Of a stretch of 64,000 nucleotides of DNA, positions 10,623 to 23,257 are shown one piece after another; positions within the stretch are counted from its first letter, which is position 1, and the number at the start of each line of letters is the position of its first letter. Below the pieces are notes generated by a model. The model saw only the letters and a list, made by a program, of their open reading frames with translations. It searched no databases and had not been told where the DNA came from. The stretch comes from Dictyostelium discoideum (taxonomy: Eukaryota). Position numbers and translations under genes: made by a program. The stretch spans positions 5,184,001 through 5,248,000 of the forward strand of contig CM000152.2 of assembly GCA_000004695.1 (NCBI GenBank). Reading direction: 5' to 3'.

Positions 10623-12378
10623 ATGTCATCAAAGTTAAGAGATTTAATTAAAACAGTTAGAAGCTGTAAAACAGCAGCAGAAGAACGTTCACAAATTGCC
10701 AAAGAATCAGCATTGATTCGTACAGCAATGAAAGAAGAAGATCTTGAATCAAGACAAAGAAATGTTGCAAAATTATTATACATTCATATGTTGGGTTATC
10801 CAACACAATTTGGTCAAATGGAATGTTTAAAATTGATTGTTTCACCATCATATGCAGATAAAAGAATTGGTTATTTAGGTCTTATGTTATTATTAGATGA
10901 AAAACAAGAAGTTTTATTATTAGCAACAAATTGTATTAGAGGGTAAGTTTATAATTTTTTATTTTTTTAAAATTATAAAAAAAAAAAAAAAATATTTATT
11001 CATTTAATTTATTAATTTAAAAAAATTATAAAAAAAAAAAAAAGTGATATTATGAATTCAAATCAATTTATTGTTGGTGTATCATTATGTGCATTTGGTA
11101 ATATTTGTTCAACAGCAATGGCAAGAGATATTTCACCAGAGATAGAGAAAGTTATATCACATAGTAATCCATACATTAGAAAGAAAGCAGCACTTTGTGC
11201 AATTAGAGTATTAAGAAAGGTACCAGATTTAACAGAGAATTATATACCAAAGATTAAAGCATTATTATCAGAAAGAAATCATGCTGTCATATTGACAGCT
11301 TTGACATTGATCATAGAGATCTGTGAAATGGATTCAACACAAATCATACACTTCAAAAAGATGGTACCACAATTGGTTAGAATTTTAAAGAGTTTGACAT
11401 CCTCTGGTTATTTACCAGAGCATGATATTGGTGGTGTCACCGATCCATTCCTTCAAGTGAAGATCTTACGTCTCTTACGTATTCTTGGTCAAAATGATCC
11501 AGAGGCATCCGATGCTATGAATGATATTTTAGCTCAAGTTTCAACCAATACCGATAGCACAAAGAATGTTGGTAATGCAATTCTCTACGAATGCGTTCAA
11601 ACTATTATGACCATCGAATCAGAGAATGGTCTCAAGGTTATGGCTATCAATATTTTGGGTAGATTCTTATTGAATCGTGATAACAACATTCGTTATGTCG
11701 CTTTGAATACCTTGTCACGTGTGGTAAACACTGACATTCAAGCAGTGCAAAGACATAGAAACACCATCGTCGAGTGTCTTAAGGATCCAGATGTATCCAT
11801 TCGTTGTAGAGCTTTGGATCTCATCTATTCTTTGGTGACCGAGTCAAATATTCGTGTGTTGGTTAGAGAATTGTTAAACTTTTTATTGATCGCCGATGCT
11901 CAATTCAAATCAGAGTTGGTCGCTAAACTTTGCATCGTCACCGAGAAATATGCACCAAATAAGAGATGGCAAATCGATACTATCCTCAGAGTTATGTCAA
12001 TCGCTGGTAATTTCATTCCAGATGAAGTCCCTTCCAATCTCATTCAACTCATCTCCTCAACACCGGAACTATCAAGTTATGCAGTTCAAAAATTATATTT
12101 AGCATTGAAACAAGATATCACTCAACAACCATTAACTCAAGTTGGTCTTTGGTGTATTGGTGAATATGGTGATCTCTTGGTTGCCGATAAATCTCAACTT
12201 CCAAAAGATGAGGATGGTCTCTCTTTAAATGTCTCTGAACAAGCTGTCATTGATATTATCGATTTAATCTTTAGACATGCTACAACAACTCAAGCTACTC
12301 GTCAATATTCTTTAACTTCTTTAGCTAAATTATCTTCAAGATTTTCACAATCATCTTTACAGTAAGTTTTTTATTTTG

Positions 12379-12410
<32 letters not shown>

Positions 12411-12965
12411 AATTTCTAATCTTTTACTTTTTTTTTTTTTTTTTAATAAAGACGTATTAAAACAATGATTGATAATTATAAACAAAATATTAATTTAGAA
12501 TTACAACAACGTGCATGTGAATATTCAACATTATTTGATTTCGATAAGAAGGCATCAATTTTAGATAGAATGCCACCAATTGAAAAACAAGAAGAATCAC
12601 CACATATCGGTAATAAAAATATTCCAACTCAAACTCCACCACAACAACATTATCAACAACAACAACAACAACCACAACAACAATCATCTCAATTTGGCTC
12701 AATTTTGGATGGTCTCGATTCACCAACTCAATCATCTGCCAATAGTGGTAATAATAATAATAATAATAATAAACAAGGTGGTAATGCTATGTCACTTTTA
12801 GAGGATATCTTTGGTTCAGCACCAACTCCAACTTCAAATGGTAATATGAATAATAATAATAATATGAATAATATGAATAATAATATGAATAATAATTATG
12901 CTATGGGAGGTATGGGTATGAATAATAATAATAATAATAGTATGGGAGGTATGATGAACAATAAC

Positions 12966-16690: not shown

Positions 16691-17407
16691 ATGCCTTCAT
16701 TAACTAATAATAATAATTCAACAATTACTAGTAATAATAATTCAAATAATACTCCAACAATGATTAAACAAAATATTTTTCAACATGGTGAACAATTAGA
16801 TAAAGTCCCAGAAGGTACAAATGTTTTAATATTTCATCATCGTTTTAATCAAGTGATTAAACAAGGATATATTCCAGACACTGTCACACATATTGTATTT
16901 GGATCATTCTTTAATAGACAAATTCAATTAAATACAATTCCAAATGGTGTTAAATTCTTACAATTCGGATACTCATTTGATCAAGCTTTGATTCCAGGTT
17001 CGCTTCCAGACTCTTTACAACAATTAACATTCGGTGATATGTTTAATAAACCAATTGAAGAGAATACAATTCCATCCTCTGTTATTAAATTGGTATATGG
17101 TGAAAACTTTTATCAAGAATTAAATTCAAATTCTGTTCCATCTTCCGTAAGATTATTAAAATTGGGTTCATATAATAAACAAATTAAAGATTTAAAAAAA
17201 GGTTGTGTTGCTCAAGATAAAATCATTTCTTTGAAAATTAAAGGTCAAAGATTACCATCATCAATTGAACAATTATCTTTTGGTTGTGGTTTTAATCAAC
17301 CAATTCCAGATGATTTAATTTCTCCAAATTGTAAAATAATTTTAGTACCACAAACTTGTACTTTTAATTCTTCTTCAATTTATTCTGATAAAATTAAATT
17401 ATTTTAA
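16691..17407 (+). CDS. FNIP-repeat-containing protein, 238 aa
   Basis: Repeated FGxxFNxxI..xxIPxSVxxLxFG units typical of dictyostelid FNIP repeats. Single ORF. Its last ~9 codons fall inside duplicated segment copy 1. Confidence 0.8.
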   Translation: MPSLTNNNNSTITSNNNSNNTPTMIKQNIFQHGEQLDKVPEGTNVLIFHHRFNQVIKQGYIPDTVTHIVFGSFFNRQIQLNTIPNGVKFLQFGYSFDQALIPGSLPDSLQQLTFGDMFNKPIEENTIPSSVIKLVYGENFYQELNSNSVPSSVRLLKLGSYNKQIKDLKKGCVAQDKIISLKIKGQRLPSSIEQLSFGCGFNQPIPDDLISPNCKIILVPQTCTFNSSSIYSDKIKLF

Positions 17408-17497
17408 AAAAAAAAAAAAAAAAAACAAAAAAAAAAAAAAAAATTTAATTATTATATATATAAAAAAAACATGTACATTAGTAAACAAATTAAAATT

Positions 17498-17529
<32 letters not shown>

Positions 17530-17827
17530 TAATAAAAAAAAAAAAACTTTGTCGACAATAAAATTTTATTTTTTTTTACATCTTAAAAAAAGTTAACAAT
17601 TTTTTTTTAATTTTTTTTAATTTTTTTAATTTTTTTATTTTTTTCTTTTATTTTTCCATATTGGTAATTTTAACTGATATTAGTTTTGTTTACCTGTTAT
17701 TTGGATTTATTTTTATTTTTATTTTTTTTTATATCTTTTTTTTTCTATTTAAAATTTAAGAGTAGTATAAGGAAAGTAGCTTAAAAAAATTTTATTTCTT
17801 TTTTTTTTTCTTATTTTTTTATTTAAA

Positions 17828-17886
<59 letters not shown>

Positions 17887-18172
17887 TTATTGATAAAAAT
17901 CAAATCAAAAAAAAAAAAAAAAAAAAAAAATTATAAAAGCATAAATCATTCCACTATTATCTTTAATTGTACAATTGTTTATTGTTGTAATTTTTAATTT
18001 TTCATTTTTTATTTTATTTCTTTAACTAAAAAAAAAAAAAAAAAGAAAAAAAATAATAAAATAAAAAAAAAGAAAAAAAAAAATGGATAAAGTTTTATCA
18101 CATTTAACAAGTGGTCATATTTTAATTAATTGGTATTGTTAATATTGGTGTACTTAAAACAGCAGTATCGAT
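17379..18172 (+). repeat. Segmental duplication copy 1 (~0.8 kb). Contents: FNIP 3' end, intergenic region, and a degenerate RhoGEF start (MDKVLSHLTSGHILINWYC*).
   Basis: Aligns colinearly with 20348..21201 at roughly 85% identity, with indels mostly in A/T runs. Conserved blocks include catgtacattagtaaacaaattaaaattgtatttatata, ggtaattttaactgatattagttttgtttac and agtagtataaggaaagtagct. Contains a T(62) homopolymer at 17823-17884. Confidence 0.85.
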
Positions 18173-18408
18173 TTTATGAGAATTAGTTTCTTAATTATTC
18201 AAAAAAAAAAAAATTAAATCGAAAAACTATACATATATGGAATTATGAGTTGTGTTGTTTATCAAATTATTTGAAAAAAAAAAATATTTAAGTTTTTTTT
18301 TTTTTTTTTTTAATTTAAAAATATATCATTTAATATAAAAAATTCATTTATTTTACAAAATATATCAACTCGTTTTCTTTTTTATTTATTTGTATAAGAA
18401 AAAAAAAA

Positions 18409-19061
18409 TGGGAAACGTTATTTCATTTGAATTTATTGATAATAATATGCAACCATTAGTATATGATAAATTTGAAAATAGCGGAGAAAGGTAGAAAGTA
18501 ATAAAAAAGATTGTTACTTGGTAATTATTTATAAATGAAAAAAAAATTATATTTGTTTTTTATGTGTATTAATATTTATTTTTTTATTTATATTTATAGG
18601 TATTATATGAAGGTAATACTAGTAATGAAAAGGGTAATTACCACACAAGTGTAGTTACTGATGTTTATGGTCAATCTACTTCAAAGACAATTAATGGTTT
18701 AGTTGGTGTTGAAACTCATCTTGTTTATTTAGAAGACAAACAAAATTTAGGATTACAAAATAGATTTTACATACCAAGCAACCATTATCAACAAAAGGTA
18801 TTTTTTTTAGGAAAGTCAAACCAAATTCCAGATCGTGTAAATCTTGTAAATGCTTTATTTACCAATATGCATTCAGATTATTATGATACTGTTAAGATTC
18901 AAAAGTGGTCTGCAAATAACAATTGCCAAACTTACTCTAAATACATTATCGATAGATTAGGTTTAACATGGCCAGAAGAACTTCAATTTTTACCATTAGA
19001 AAGAGGAAATGTTTTACAATTAGTTGAATTATACAATGACATTAAAAACTCAACTCATTAA
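18409..19061 (+). CDS. Hypothetical protein with an N-myristoylation consensus (MGNVISF...). Two exons; approximate CDS join(18409..~18490, ~18630..19061). The exon-1/2 junction is uncertain.
   Basis: Exon 1 reads MGNVISFEFIDNNMQPLVYDKFENSGE and then hits a stop unless spliced at AG|GTAGAA. A long open frame runs 18599-19061 (...YHTSVVTDVYGQ...NNCQTYSKYIIDRLGLTWPEELQFLPLERG...NSTH*). Weak resemblance to the LRAT/NlpC-P60 H..H..C arrangement, not established. Confidence 0.45.
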
Positions 19062-19576
19062 ATGGTATAATAATGTACATTCTTCAAACAGCTCTATATA
19101 TAAAAATTTATAAATTTCATCATTTCATGTATTTCATCAATCAACAACACTCTTTATAAAAATTTCATTTTTTTCATCAATCAACAAACTACTCTTTACA
19201 ACCAGTTAGAATTTACCAAGTAAAATATTAATAAATTGTTTAGTAGTTTAAAAAAAAAATTAATAGTAAATAAAGTTTAATTGTTTTGGATTTTATTTTA
19301 AATTTTATTTTTATTTTTGTTGATGGTAATAAATCAAATTTTTCTTTAACCAATTTTTTTTAAATTAATTAATTGTTATTATTTTTTTATTATTTATTAG
19401 TTTTTTAAATATGTACATAAAAGTTTAAACCAATATGGTTTTTTTTTTTTTTTTTATATTATCTTTTTTTTTTGTTTTTGTTTTTTTTTTTTTTTTTTTT
19501 TATTCTTTATGACAAGTGATTAATGATTTATAAATAGTATTGATTGATATTTAAACAAGTTTTGAAATATATTATA

Positions 19577-20345
19577 TTAAGAAAAAAGAGTTGAAGTTGT
19601 TGTTGTACTAGTTGTTGTGTTTGTTGTATTATTATTATTTTCAGTTTGATTATTTGTATTAAAATTATTTGTAGTAATATTTGAATCGGAACATTCAGTG
19701 ATTTTAATTGTTTCTTGTGGTCTATTTAGTGGTTTTAAATCGGCATAACTATTGCTACGGAATGAATCACCTTTTGAATTAATTCTAAATAGTTCACCAC
19801 GACTATTTACTCTATCCAACATTGGTGGACGTTTTTCATTGATTAAATCCATCTTATGAGCTTGAGCAAAATCACCAAGAGCCTTCTTGAGAGCATCTTT
19901 ACCTTCGGTCAATAAACCTTGAGTAATTTTTCTAGATGCTGAAAAACTTTTAATCATCATGATGGTTTCGTGTTCTTGTCTCAACAAAGAGAACATTCTC
20001 ATCTTACTAACAGATTTAACATTTGCACGTAATAATTGTCTTTTCTTTTCATCTTCTTCTTTGTTGATAATATCTTTGTGTTCATTCTTTTCAGCCTCTT
20101 CATCATCACAAAGATTCAACAATACCAATAACATTTCAGCAACCTTTTCAGAGATAAATGGCATGGACCAATTAAATACATCCATGAAATTTGGCAACCA
20201 ATAAGGATGTGGTGAACATGTGAATTGATGAATATTGAGAATAAACATTGTTTTCATAACGTAAAACTGCACCCTTGTTATTGTATGCGTCTAAATAATT
20301 TGGTGGTGCGGAAAACAATGTGATAACTGATGGAAATCTGGTTGC
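19577..20345 (-). pseudogene. canA: Calcineurin A (PP2B catalytic subunit) 3' fragment. Covers the end of the catalytic domain, the CnB- and calmodulin-binding regions and the autoinhibitory region. Truncated at the repeat boundary and carries a +1 frameshift.
   Basis: Minus-strand frame A reads [32 protein letters not shown] (cf. human [31 protein letters not shown]). After one extra nucleotide the reading frame continues in a different frame as [43 protein letters not shown], then the calmodulin-binding-like [25 protein letters not shown] and the AI-like [18 protein letters not shown] sits immediately 5' at the junction with repeat copy 2. No phosphatase N-terminal exons occur anywhere else in the window. 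Confidence 0.7.
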
Positions 20346-20368
20346 ATTTTATTCTGATAAAATTAAAT

Positions 20369-20408
<40 letters not shown>

Positions 20409-20687
20409 TATTATATATAAAAAAAAAAAAAAAACATGTACATTAGTAAACAAATTAAAATTGTATTTATATAAAAAAAATAAAAAAAAAAAACAAAAAA
20501 GTAATAAAAAAAAAAGCTTTGCCGACAATAATATAACAAATAAAATTATTTTTTTTTTTTGACATCTTTAAAAAATATTTTATAATTTTTTTTTTTTTTT
20601 TATTATTTTTTATTTTTTTTACTTTTATTTTTCCACATTGGTAATTTTAACTAATATTAGTTTTGTTTACAACACTGTTTTTGGATT

Positions 20688-20733
<46 letters not shown>

Positions 20734-21114
20734 TACCATTTTTTTTTTTTTTTTTTTTTTCTATTTAAAAATTAAGGGTAGTAGTATAAGGAAAGTAGCT
20801 AAAAAGAATTTTATTTCTTTTTTTTTATTTGAAAACAGTTTTTTGTTTTTTTATTTTTTTTTTTTTATTTTTTATTTTTTTTTTTTTATTTTTGTTTTTT
20901 TATTTTGAAATTTTTTTTTTTTTTTGTTACCAATCAAAAAAAAAAAAAAAAAATCAAAAAAAAACCATAATTCATTCCACCATTACCTTTATTTGTACAA
21001 TTGTTTATTGTTGTAATTTTTTATTTTAATTTTTTATTTTATTATTTCTTTAACTAAAAAAAAAAAAAAAAAAAAAAAAAGAAAAAAAAGAAAAGAAAGA
21101 AAATAAAGAAAAAA

Positions 21115-23257
<2,143 letters not shown>

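Follow-up and report, generated by a model that had tools for sequence, protein, structure and literature searches.

A probable calcineurin A relic from a diverged donor at an unstable duplication junction of Dictyostelium discoideum chromosome 3

The stretch of DNA considered here (the window) comprises 64,000 nucleotides of chromosome 3 of Dictyostelium discoideum AX4 (assembly GCA_000004695.1, contig CM000152.2, forward-strand positions 5,184,001 to 5,248,000) and covers the neighbourhood of genes DDB_G0281971 to DDB_G0281999; positions are counted from its first letter. At 19577-20348, on the minus strand, lies a coding remnant derived from calcineurin A, homologous to the C-terminal ~280 residues of that protein and the counterpart of D. 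discoideum CanA from residue ~346 to the end. In our reading it is probably a young, non-functional relic of calcineurin A (a gene fragment or unitary pseudogene), stemming from a diverged donor and captured at an unstable junction. The parts of the remnant are these:

19577 to 20348, minus strand: the whole remnant, recognised by phmmer, tblastn and nucleotide identity.
20244 to 20348, minus strand: catalytic-domain remnant of 35 codons, without a start codon and in a different frame from the tail, with a TAA in its own frame before it.
20295 to 20312, minus strand: SAPPNY, the PPP-family motif SAPNY with one extra CCA (Pro) codon, which lies within 20306-20301.
20237 to 20243, minus strand: frame break, at which ATG (the Met of ENNVMNIRQF) is replaced by TATTCTC, net +4 nt, in alignment to three Dictyostelium canA genes (D. 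discoideum, D. firmibasis and D. purpureum).
19577 to 20257, minus strand: open reading frame (ORF) of the tail, 226 codons plus stop (TAA at 19579-19577); the annotated coding sequence starts at the second ATG, 20248.
20108 to 20194, minus strand: calcineurin-B-binding helix region, nearly intact in alignment to human calcineurin A and D. discoideum CanA.
19976 to 20047, minus strand: homologue of the calmodulin-binding region, with a one-codon (ATG) deletion.
19814 to 19879, minus strand: homologue of the autoinhibitory segment, with an R to H change inside it.
19580 to 19684, minus strand: Asn/Thr-rich low-complexity C-terminus; at its start TCA has become TGA in the allele of assemblies L001-L004 (described below).
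20291 to 20347, minus strand: upstream ORF of 18 codons; its AUG (context AAAAUG) is a product of the junction and comes before the AUGs of the tail ORF, and any transcript that begins past the T28 run described below would meet it first.

That this is a piece of calcineurin A, as the first-pass annotation had proposed from the letters alone, is borne out by tblastn with CanA and by the joined translation of the two frames, which matches calcineurin A in the PDB (phmmer, E about 1e-50) over residues ~295-475 of the human and mouse proteins, with exactly two one-residue gaps in the alignment, SA-PNY and ENNV-MNI. At the nucleotide level the remnant is 78% identical to canA of D. discoideum (Dd), 79% to that of D. 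firmibasis (Df) and 74% to that of D. purpureum (Dp); D. dimigraforme (Ddim) enters the comparisons below, and canA of isolate ACTFIW (L010), whose protein is nearly identical, stands in for the AX4 canA DNA. The fragment shares 80% of its amino acids with Dd CanA (CanA residues ~346-590). Its parts follow one another in the order found in CanA, namely last catalytic strands, calcineurin-B-binding helix, linker, calmodulin-binding region, autoinhibitory segment and low-complexity tail.

The remnant cannot be read as a functional PPP phosphatase: the metal-binding core (GDxHG, GDxVDRG, GNHE) is missing, SAPNY is both broken and out of frame, and the Pfam domain Metallophos is absent from the ORF and from the joined translation alike. 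Homology to a functional gene is combined with truncation, frameshift and loss of the start, and the description as a pseudogene, first put forward on the strength of truncation, motif insertion and frameshift, remains the best reading. One detail has changed. The frame break is real, but it is not the +1 slip in a T run that had been described; three nucleotides have been replaced by seven. Downstream of it the C-terminal ORF is open, as had been noticed, and measures 231 aa from a GTG, 226 aa from the first ATG (20257) or 223 aa from the second (20248). Within the tail the calcineurin-B-binding helix aligns to human and Dictyostelium calcineurin A without gaps and with two substitutions; the calmodulin-binding region has three substitutions at sites that are the same in the canA genes of Dd, Df and Dp, and one of the two NSRGELLRM repeats that canA carries after the autoinhibitory segment has been deleted (27 nt).

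The open tail already stands in the databases as gene model DDB_G0281975, a "hypothetical protein" of 223 aa (XP_640385.1, UniProt Q54T66); it bears this label because Pfam sees no domain in the ORF. DDB_G0281975 is mentioned in the main text of no searchable paper. The resident calcineurin A gene is canA (DDB_G0276883, Q7YSW8, P0142), which encodes 623 aa with canonical SAPNY and ENNVMNIRQF, lies on chromosome 2 (the 8.48-Mb record) and has been described as single-copy in D. discoideum (PMC1431509). Compared with it the fragment is without the first ~345 residues, including all metal-binding motifs, occupies a different chromosome and is lacking in close relatives. Outside this group, Acytostelium subglobosum has two full-length calcineurin A proteins (P0145 and P0146, 562 and 582 aa), and canA duplication therefore does occur in dictyostelids.

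Could the lesions simply have arisen in sequencing or assembly, so that the gene is a working canA with its upstream exons close by? Both a homopolymer error and a mis-assembly had been offered as ways out, and it is true that the frame break adjoins a short T run and that the AT-rich DNA of Dictyostelium is error-prone. However, the chromosome-level assembly GCA_054883475.1 (locus L013) carries the same CCACCACCA and GTTTATTCTC; over 6.7 kb it is 99.39% identical to the window, and its 5 mismatches and 36 gap positions identify it as a separate assembly. The same CCACCACCA and GTTTATTCTC occur in a second allele, ~0.5% different, which was assembled from separate SRA runs in four Logan short-read assemblies (L001-L004). 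Thus the extra CCA and the TATTCTC are identical in six assemblies, and since they recur in independent ones they are not sequencing errors; nor would a homopolymer slip yield four extra nucleotides with replacement of sequence. (The second allele is seen in at least seven SRA runs, and homopolymer runs bound every contig.) As to nearby exons, tblastn of full-length CanA against the whole window matched only at 19685-20348 (CanA residues 344-573), with no upstream exons; the 5' truncation is real, since the DNA upstream is a copy of the 3' end of another gene, with an FNIP repeat, and the true canA is elsewhere and only 78% identical. We regard error in a functional gene as so improbable as to be negligible.

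The surroundings of the fragment are best understood from syntenic regions of D. citrinum (L005), two isolates of D. cf. discoideum (L006 and L011) and a wild D. discoideum isolate (L007). D. citrinum and L011 have a simple layout of FNIP-repeat gene, ~0.8-kb spacer and RhoGEF gene. In AX4 this segment is present twice, as a ~0.8-kb direct duplication (88.8% substitution identity) that includes the first ~85 nt of the RhoGEF gene, and between the two copies lies an insert of 2.2 kb, here called X (18169-20344), with the calcineurin block at its right edge:

17376 to 18168, plus strand: copy A1, at the original position (FNIP 3' end, spacer, RhoGEF start), from sequence comparison.
20345 to 21199, plus strand: copy A2 of the same segment (last 9 codons and stop of the FNIP gene DDB_G0281971, ~0.75-kb spacer, RhoGEF start).
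20345 to 20348, no strand: 5' junction, where the calcineurin sequence is joined, inverted, to the FNIP 3'-end copy through 3-4 nt of microhomology (AAA/AAAT).
19325 to 19576, minus strand: 3' flank of the inserted block, with ~75 nt resembling an untranslated region (UTR), AATAAA at 19504-19499, interrupted A-runs at 19501-19440 and ~115 nt of AT-rich DNA.

Read on the canA sense strand, the junction passes from the FNIP copy, ...TTTATCAGAATAAA, into calcineurin sequence, ATGATGCAACC; the break lies well inside a canA exon, at Gln345/Asn346, and a further codon (GAT) that the second allele keeps at this point is gone from AX4. At the other end, AATAAA followed by A21 and further A-runs stands ~75 nt past the stop codon of the remnant, and homology to the alleles of other strains resumes at ~19324-19350. 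The 3' flank has no similarity to the 3' flanks of the canA loci compared. We also considered whether the insert might be canA together with its downstream neighbour (a Polyketide_cyc2 gene) and rejected this, as window 18100-19600 gave no blastn or tblastx matches to four canA flanks. The left copy A1 retains an orphan RhoGEF start, at ~18084-18168.

The calcineurin fragment is absent at the syntenic site in L005, L011 and L007, and D. citrinum L005 and D. cf. discoideum L011 lack the whole of insert X. The three genomes that carry X (AX4, L007 and L006) have three different structures at this one junction, which is therefore a rearrangement hot spot. AX4 holds the 0.77-kb calcineurin piece. 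L007 has at the same junction (its positions 12355-12739) an inverted partial FNIP copy, equivalent to window 16908-16455 at 80% identity. In L006 the FNIP copy is longer, and before it stands a calcineurin piece of 33 nt, GTTAAATCTGTTAGTAAGATGATGAGAATGTTC (L006 12584-12616, VKSVSKMMRMF), which matches Dd canA at 32 of 33 positions, is the same as the AX4 fragment except for one ATG unit, is joined to the FNIP copy via 7 nt of microhomology (GTTAAAT) and is oriented opposite to the AX4 fragment. Calcineurin-derived DNA was probably present at the junction already in the common ancestor of AX4 and L006, and was then eroded differently.

Codon distances (Nei-Gojobori, 225 codons) tell how far the fragment stands from any canA that we compared, in synonymous (dS) and nonsynonymous (dN) substitutions per site:

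Fragment against Dd, Ddim and Df canA: dS 0.78-0.86, dN ~0.10.
Fragment against Dp canA: dS 1.3, dN ~0.12.
Dd, Ddim and Df canA among themselves: dS 0.44-0.49, dN ~0.

In 99.6% of bootstraps the fragment falls outside the clade of Dd, Ddim and Df canA, and it shares 57 sites with Dd and Df against Dp and only 26 with Dp. When the coding sequences of the FNIP and RhoGEF genes are used as a local clock, dS to AX4 comes out at 0.057 for L007, 0.070 for L006, 0.105 for L011 and 0.277 for D. citrinum, from which it follows that X is younger than ~0.05 substitutions per site; set against dS of 0.8 to the resident canA, this age means that the fragment is not a copy of that gene. As an aside, dS values of 0.057-0.105 between AX4 and L007, L006 and L011, all labelled D. 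discoideum or D. cf. discoideum, are large for one species, which suggests that assemblies under the D. discoideum label represent a complex of cryptic lineages.

This divergence did not build up neutrally. Upstream of the frameshift, in the 34 alignable codons of the remnant that are untranslatable today, there are 9 synonymous changes and 1 nonsynonymous one (G to R), a pattern with a binomial P of 3e-5 under a neutral expectation of 75% nonsynonymous (a generic 0.75 was used). The tail differs from canA by 59 synonymous and 45 nonsynonymous changes (omega 0.11), giving 68 to 46 overall. This synonymous excess, in the untranslatable remnant as in the tail, indicates that the source was a functional canA-type gene, and most of the divergence accrued under purifying selection, before insertion. 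Neutral decay of 3.5-5% since insertion would add ~16-23 nonsynonymous changes to the tail, and the nonsynonymous changes that remain could fit an ordinary orthologue at that distance.

These figures bear directly on the idea that the fragment is a duplicate or processed retrocopy of the resident canA that has decayed in place for a long time. Its 5' truncation, its lack of introns and the AATAAA with A-runs ~75 nt past the stop are what such a copy would show, and in these respects it is like processed retropseudogenes, which are likewise 5'-truncated and intron-less with AATAAA and an A-rich tract after a UTR-like stretch. Long neutral decay, however, predicts ~75-80% nonsynonymous changes and a closed ORF (P = 0.001-0.006), which is not what is observed, and an insert of <~0.05 substitutions per site has no room for dS of 0.8. 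No diagnostic feature of retroposition is shown either: in Dd, Df and Dp alike the canA sequence that the fragment matches is contained in one terminal exon, so that the absence of introns is uninformative, A-runs are ubiquitous in this DNA, there is no homology to the 3' UTR, and no target-site duplication was seen by eye. We sought tRNA genes, the targets of TRE retroelements, found none in the window, and rejected TRE involvement on that ground. Descent from the resident gene by either route is, in our judgement, very unlikely.

If not the resident gene, what was the donor? Its position in the comparisons would place its split from the canA lineage after that of D. purpureum and before Dd, Ddim and Df separated. 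It was either a paralogue since lost or the canA of an unsampled group-4 species, and our lookups fit both. Protein searches and a ranking of 256 retrieved proteins yielded no closer donor protein, none exceeding 80-82% in what is a lossy index. Among named candidates, D. dimigraforme canA was rejected, being no closer at synonymous sites, and gene conversion with the resident canA was set aside likewise, since sites shared only with Dd canA are scattered (11 vs 5) and form no tract. The source gene seems to be no longer present in the genome, and it is this ghost donor that is unusual; the category, a captured gene-fragment pseudogene, is a known one.

The remainder of insert X needs to be described before the two kinds of donor are weighed. 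It holds one gene:

18408 to 19061, plus strand: companion gene DDB_G0281973, 170 aa, with one intron (18459-18599), inside X and convergent with the fragment.

DDB_G0281973 has no Pfam domain and, in an exhaustive HMMER search, only 14 relatives; every named one comes from the D. discoideum complex, and some lie on other contigs. It belongs to a small, fast-evolving, lineage-restricted family, and because family members occur on other contigs of the complex, X as a whole looks native. Beyond copy A2, a pure ATT/AAT repeat of ~180 nt (window 22315-22497) stands between RhoGEF-domain ORFs at 21115-22314 and 22544-23257, presumably within an intron; related repeats are also found in the D. citrinum locus (L005 ~17000-17460).

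The donor could thus have been the canA of another dictyostelid species, captured as foreign DNA in double-strand-break repair, rather than a lost paralogue. The phylogenetic position of the fragment is incongruent with the age of its insertion, as in horizontal acquisition: it lies outside the Dd, Ddim and Df clade (bootstrap 0.996) and yet the insert is younger than the split between AX4 and ACTFIZ. A lost paralogue gives the same pattern. In keeping with a foreign source, the annotated dictyostelid proteomes retrieved contain no second canA-type protein, the nonsynonymous excess left after 3.5-5% neutral decay is about that of an ordinary orthologue, and gene-conversion tracts with the resident canA are absent. 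Against it, no donor has been identified, in a protein index that is lossy, and the G+C content at third codon positions (0.24, with 0.25-0.31 in canA), the composition and the codon usage of the fragment are typical of Dictyostelium, in an insert the rest of which looks native. We hold a foreign origin only tentatively, as possible rather than probable. A fuller version, in which ~1 kb of foreign dictyostelid canA was captured, is transcribed from the terminator described below and serves some strains as a decoy without catalytic domain, we think unlikely; it would amount to a transfer from one eukaryote to another inside the genus.

Why, then, is the tail still open? Recency had been suggested in the first-pass annotation, and simulation supports it, with the following probabilities that the ORF is open:

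Neutral divergence of 22%: 0.001-0.006.
Neutral divergence of 6%: 0.11-0.17.
Neutral divergence of 3%: 0.32-0.41.
Neutral divergence of 0.5-1.3%: 0.60-0.87.

The local time scale implies neutral decay of 3.5-5%, at which the probability is ~0.15-0.35, as against 0.001-0.006 if all of the 22% divergence were neutral, so that at the age of the insertion an open tail is unremarkable. Between the two alleles the changes look neutral. AX4 and the Logan allele differ by four substitutions, all of them in the ORF, all nonsynonymous (0 synonymous) and one of them the change of TCA to TGA; they differ also by three indels, namely the junction codon GAT, one AAT unit and a TAATA at the stop. These differences fit neutrality (P = 0.35) and reject an omega of 0.1 (P = 0.004), with n = 4 substitutions only. 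We infer that DDB_G0281975 is non-functional.

DDB_G0281975 is nevertheless transcribed and developmentally regulated in AX4, with a rapid fall after 16 h of filter development in the RNA-seq data of Rosengarten et al. 2015 (Additional file 7, sheet filter_DOWN, column 19, which is DOWN_Hr16_rapid by tab count). Cross-mapping of canA reads to DDB_G0281975 is unlikely at 78% nucleotide identity. Directly upstream of the fragment on the minus strand, in copy A2, stands TATATATAATAATTATA (20419-20403) and then T28 (20402-20375), the former FNIP terminator. Dictyostelium promoters are laid out as a TATA-box with oligo-dT. By analogy with these, the former terminator plausibly resembles a promoter, and may drive transcription of DDB_G0281975.

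This makes it reasonable to ask whether DDB_G0281975 is functional, as a regulatory-domain-only decoy or inhibitor that titrates calcineurin B and/or calmodulin in development. The truncated regulatory-domain protein envisaged from the sequence at the outset has gained a transcript and no positive protein-level support. Truncated or engineered regulatory fragments of calcineurin, such as the autoinhibitory peptide and constructs of the calcineurin-B-binding helix, inhibit calcineurin, and the tail ORF would, by comparison, hold the same inhibitory and binding modules without a catalytic domain; what sets it apart is that the population data look neutral. A decoy would be translated from ATGs brought in frame by the +4 indel, through the open ORF of 226 codons, and would account for the almost unchanged calcineurin-B-binding helix, the in-frame indels of the tail, the mRNA with its sharp fall after 16 h and the promoter-like TATA with T28 upstream. 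The ratio of nonsynonymous to synonymous changes per site private to the fragment (pN/pS) is 0.32 in the tail, below 1, but this is explained by divergence before insertion, and the ratio in the untranslatable remnant is lower still. With an insertion this young, chance suffices to explain an open ORF; all four allele substitutions alter the protein, one of them to a stop; and the locus is missing from close relatives. The 18-codon upstream ORF, in strong context, would count against translation of the tail, and the calmodulin-binding helix has a one-residue deletion. Among the rows covered in the tables of a life-cycle proteome and of a calmodulin pull-down proteome, both of which list CanA, Q54T66 was not found, which is weak evidence. 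Taken together, we consider a functional decoy decidedly unlikely.

There are several observations that weigh against a young, functionless relic, and we set them out here. The transcript and its developmental regulation are the first of these, and the incomplete coverage of the proteome tables lessens the force of the missing peptides. In the conserved part of the tail each of the three indels has a length divisible by three (3, 3 and 27 nt); the calcineurin-B-binding helix and the calmodulin-binding and autoinhibitory segments are recognisably kept; and the nonsense change of L001-L004 removes only the low-complexity end. The comparison between alleles draws on a sample of only four substitutions. 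As regards the capture, one simple insertion does not account for the opposite orientation of the 33-nt piece of L006; an inverted duplication that later eroded might do so, as might several template switches during the same repair event. As regards the donor, the search was lossy (one search missed the resident canA and another scored only 13 candidates), so that its negative result is a weak one, and a surviving paralogue may exist in some genome.

On balance we favour the captured relic, which most resembles the gene-fragment pseudogenes found at repair junctions, where filler DNA, microhomology joining and template switching are at work. It shares with these a partial start in mid-exon, 3-4 nt of microhomology, a variable duplication edge and disabling lesions, and in a second lineage (L006) there is a 33-nt templated piece. 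It differs from them in that no gene still present in this genome was its source and in being a transcribed and annotated ORF.

We propose that ~1 kb of DNA, with the last ~280 codons of a canA-type gene and its 3' flank, would have been joined by a microhomology-mediated event to a duplication junction that was unstable already, with the FNIP-repeat gene DDB_G0281971 on one side and the RhoGEF gene on the other, and that it may have been captured as filler or template-switch DNA during break repair. The donor was a functional, diverged canA-type gene and not the resident canA. Neutral decay after insertion would have placed the CCA in SAPNY and brought about the +4 frameshift that killed Met381; later, AX4 would have lost the junction codon and the other allele gained its nonsense mutation. 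The tail would still be open only as too little time has elapsed, and the inverted FNIP terminator upstream may be what has it transcribed; being open and transcribed, it was annotated as the protein-coding gene DDB_G0281975.

Q54T66 is at present listed in databases as an uncharacterised protein-coding gene, and its recognition as a canA relic corrects the annotation. For work on calcineurin in Dictyostelium, canA probes, RNA interference hairpins and antibodies to the C-terminus could touch a second transcribed locus in strains of the AX4 type, though the identity is only 78%. The locus also offers a datable case of gene-fragment capture at a fragile junction that varies across the D. discoideum complex. 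With another species as the source, the locus would be evidence that social amoebae exchange DNA; with a lost paralogue, group-4 dictyostelids would once have had two calcineurin A genes.

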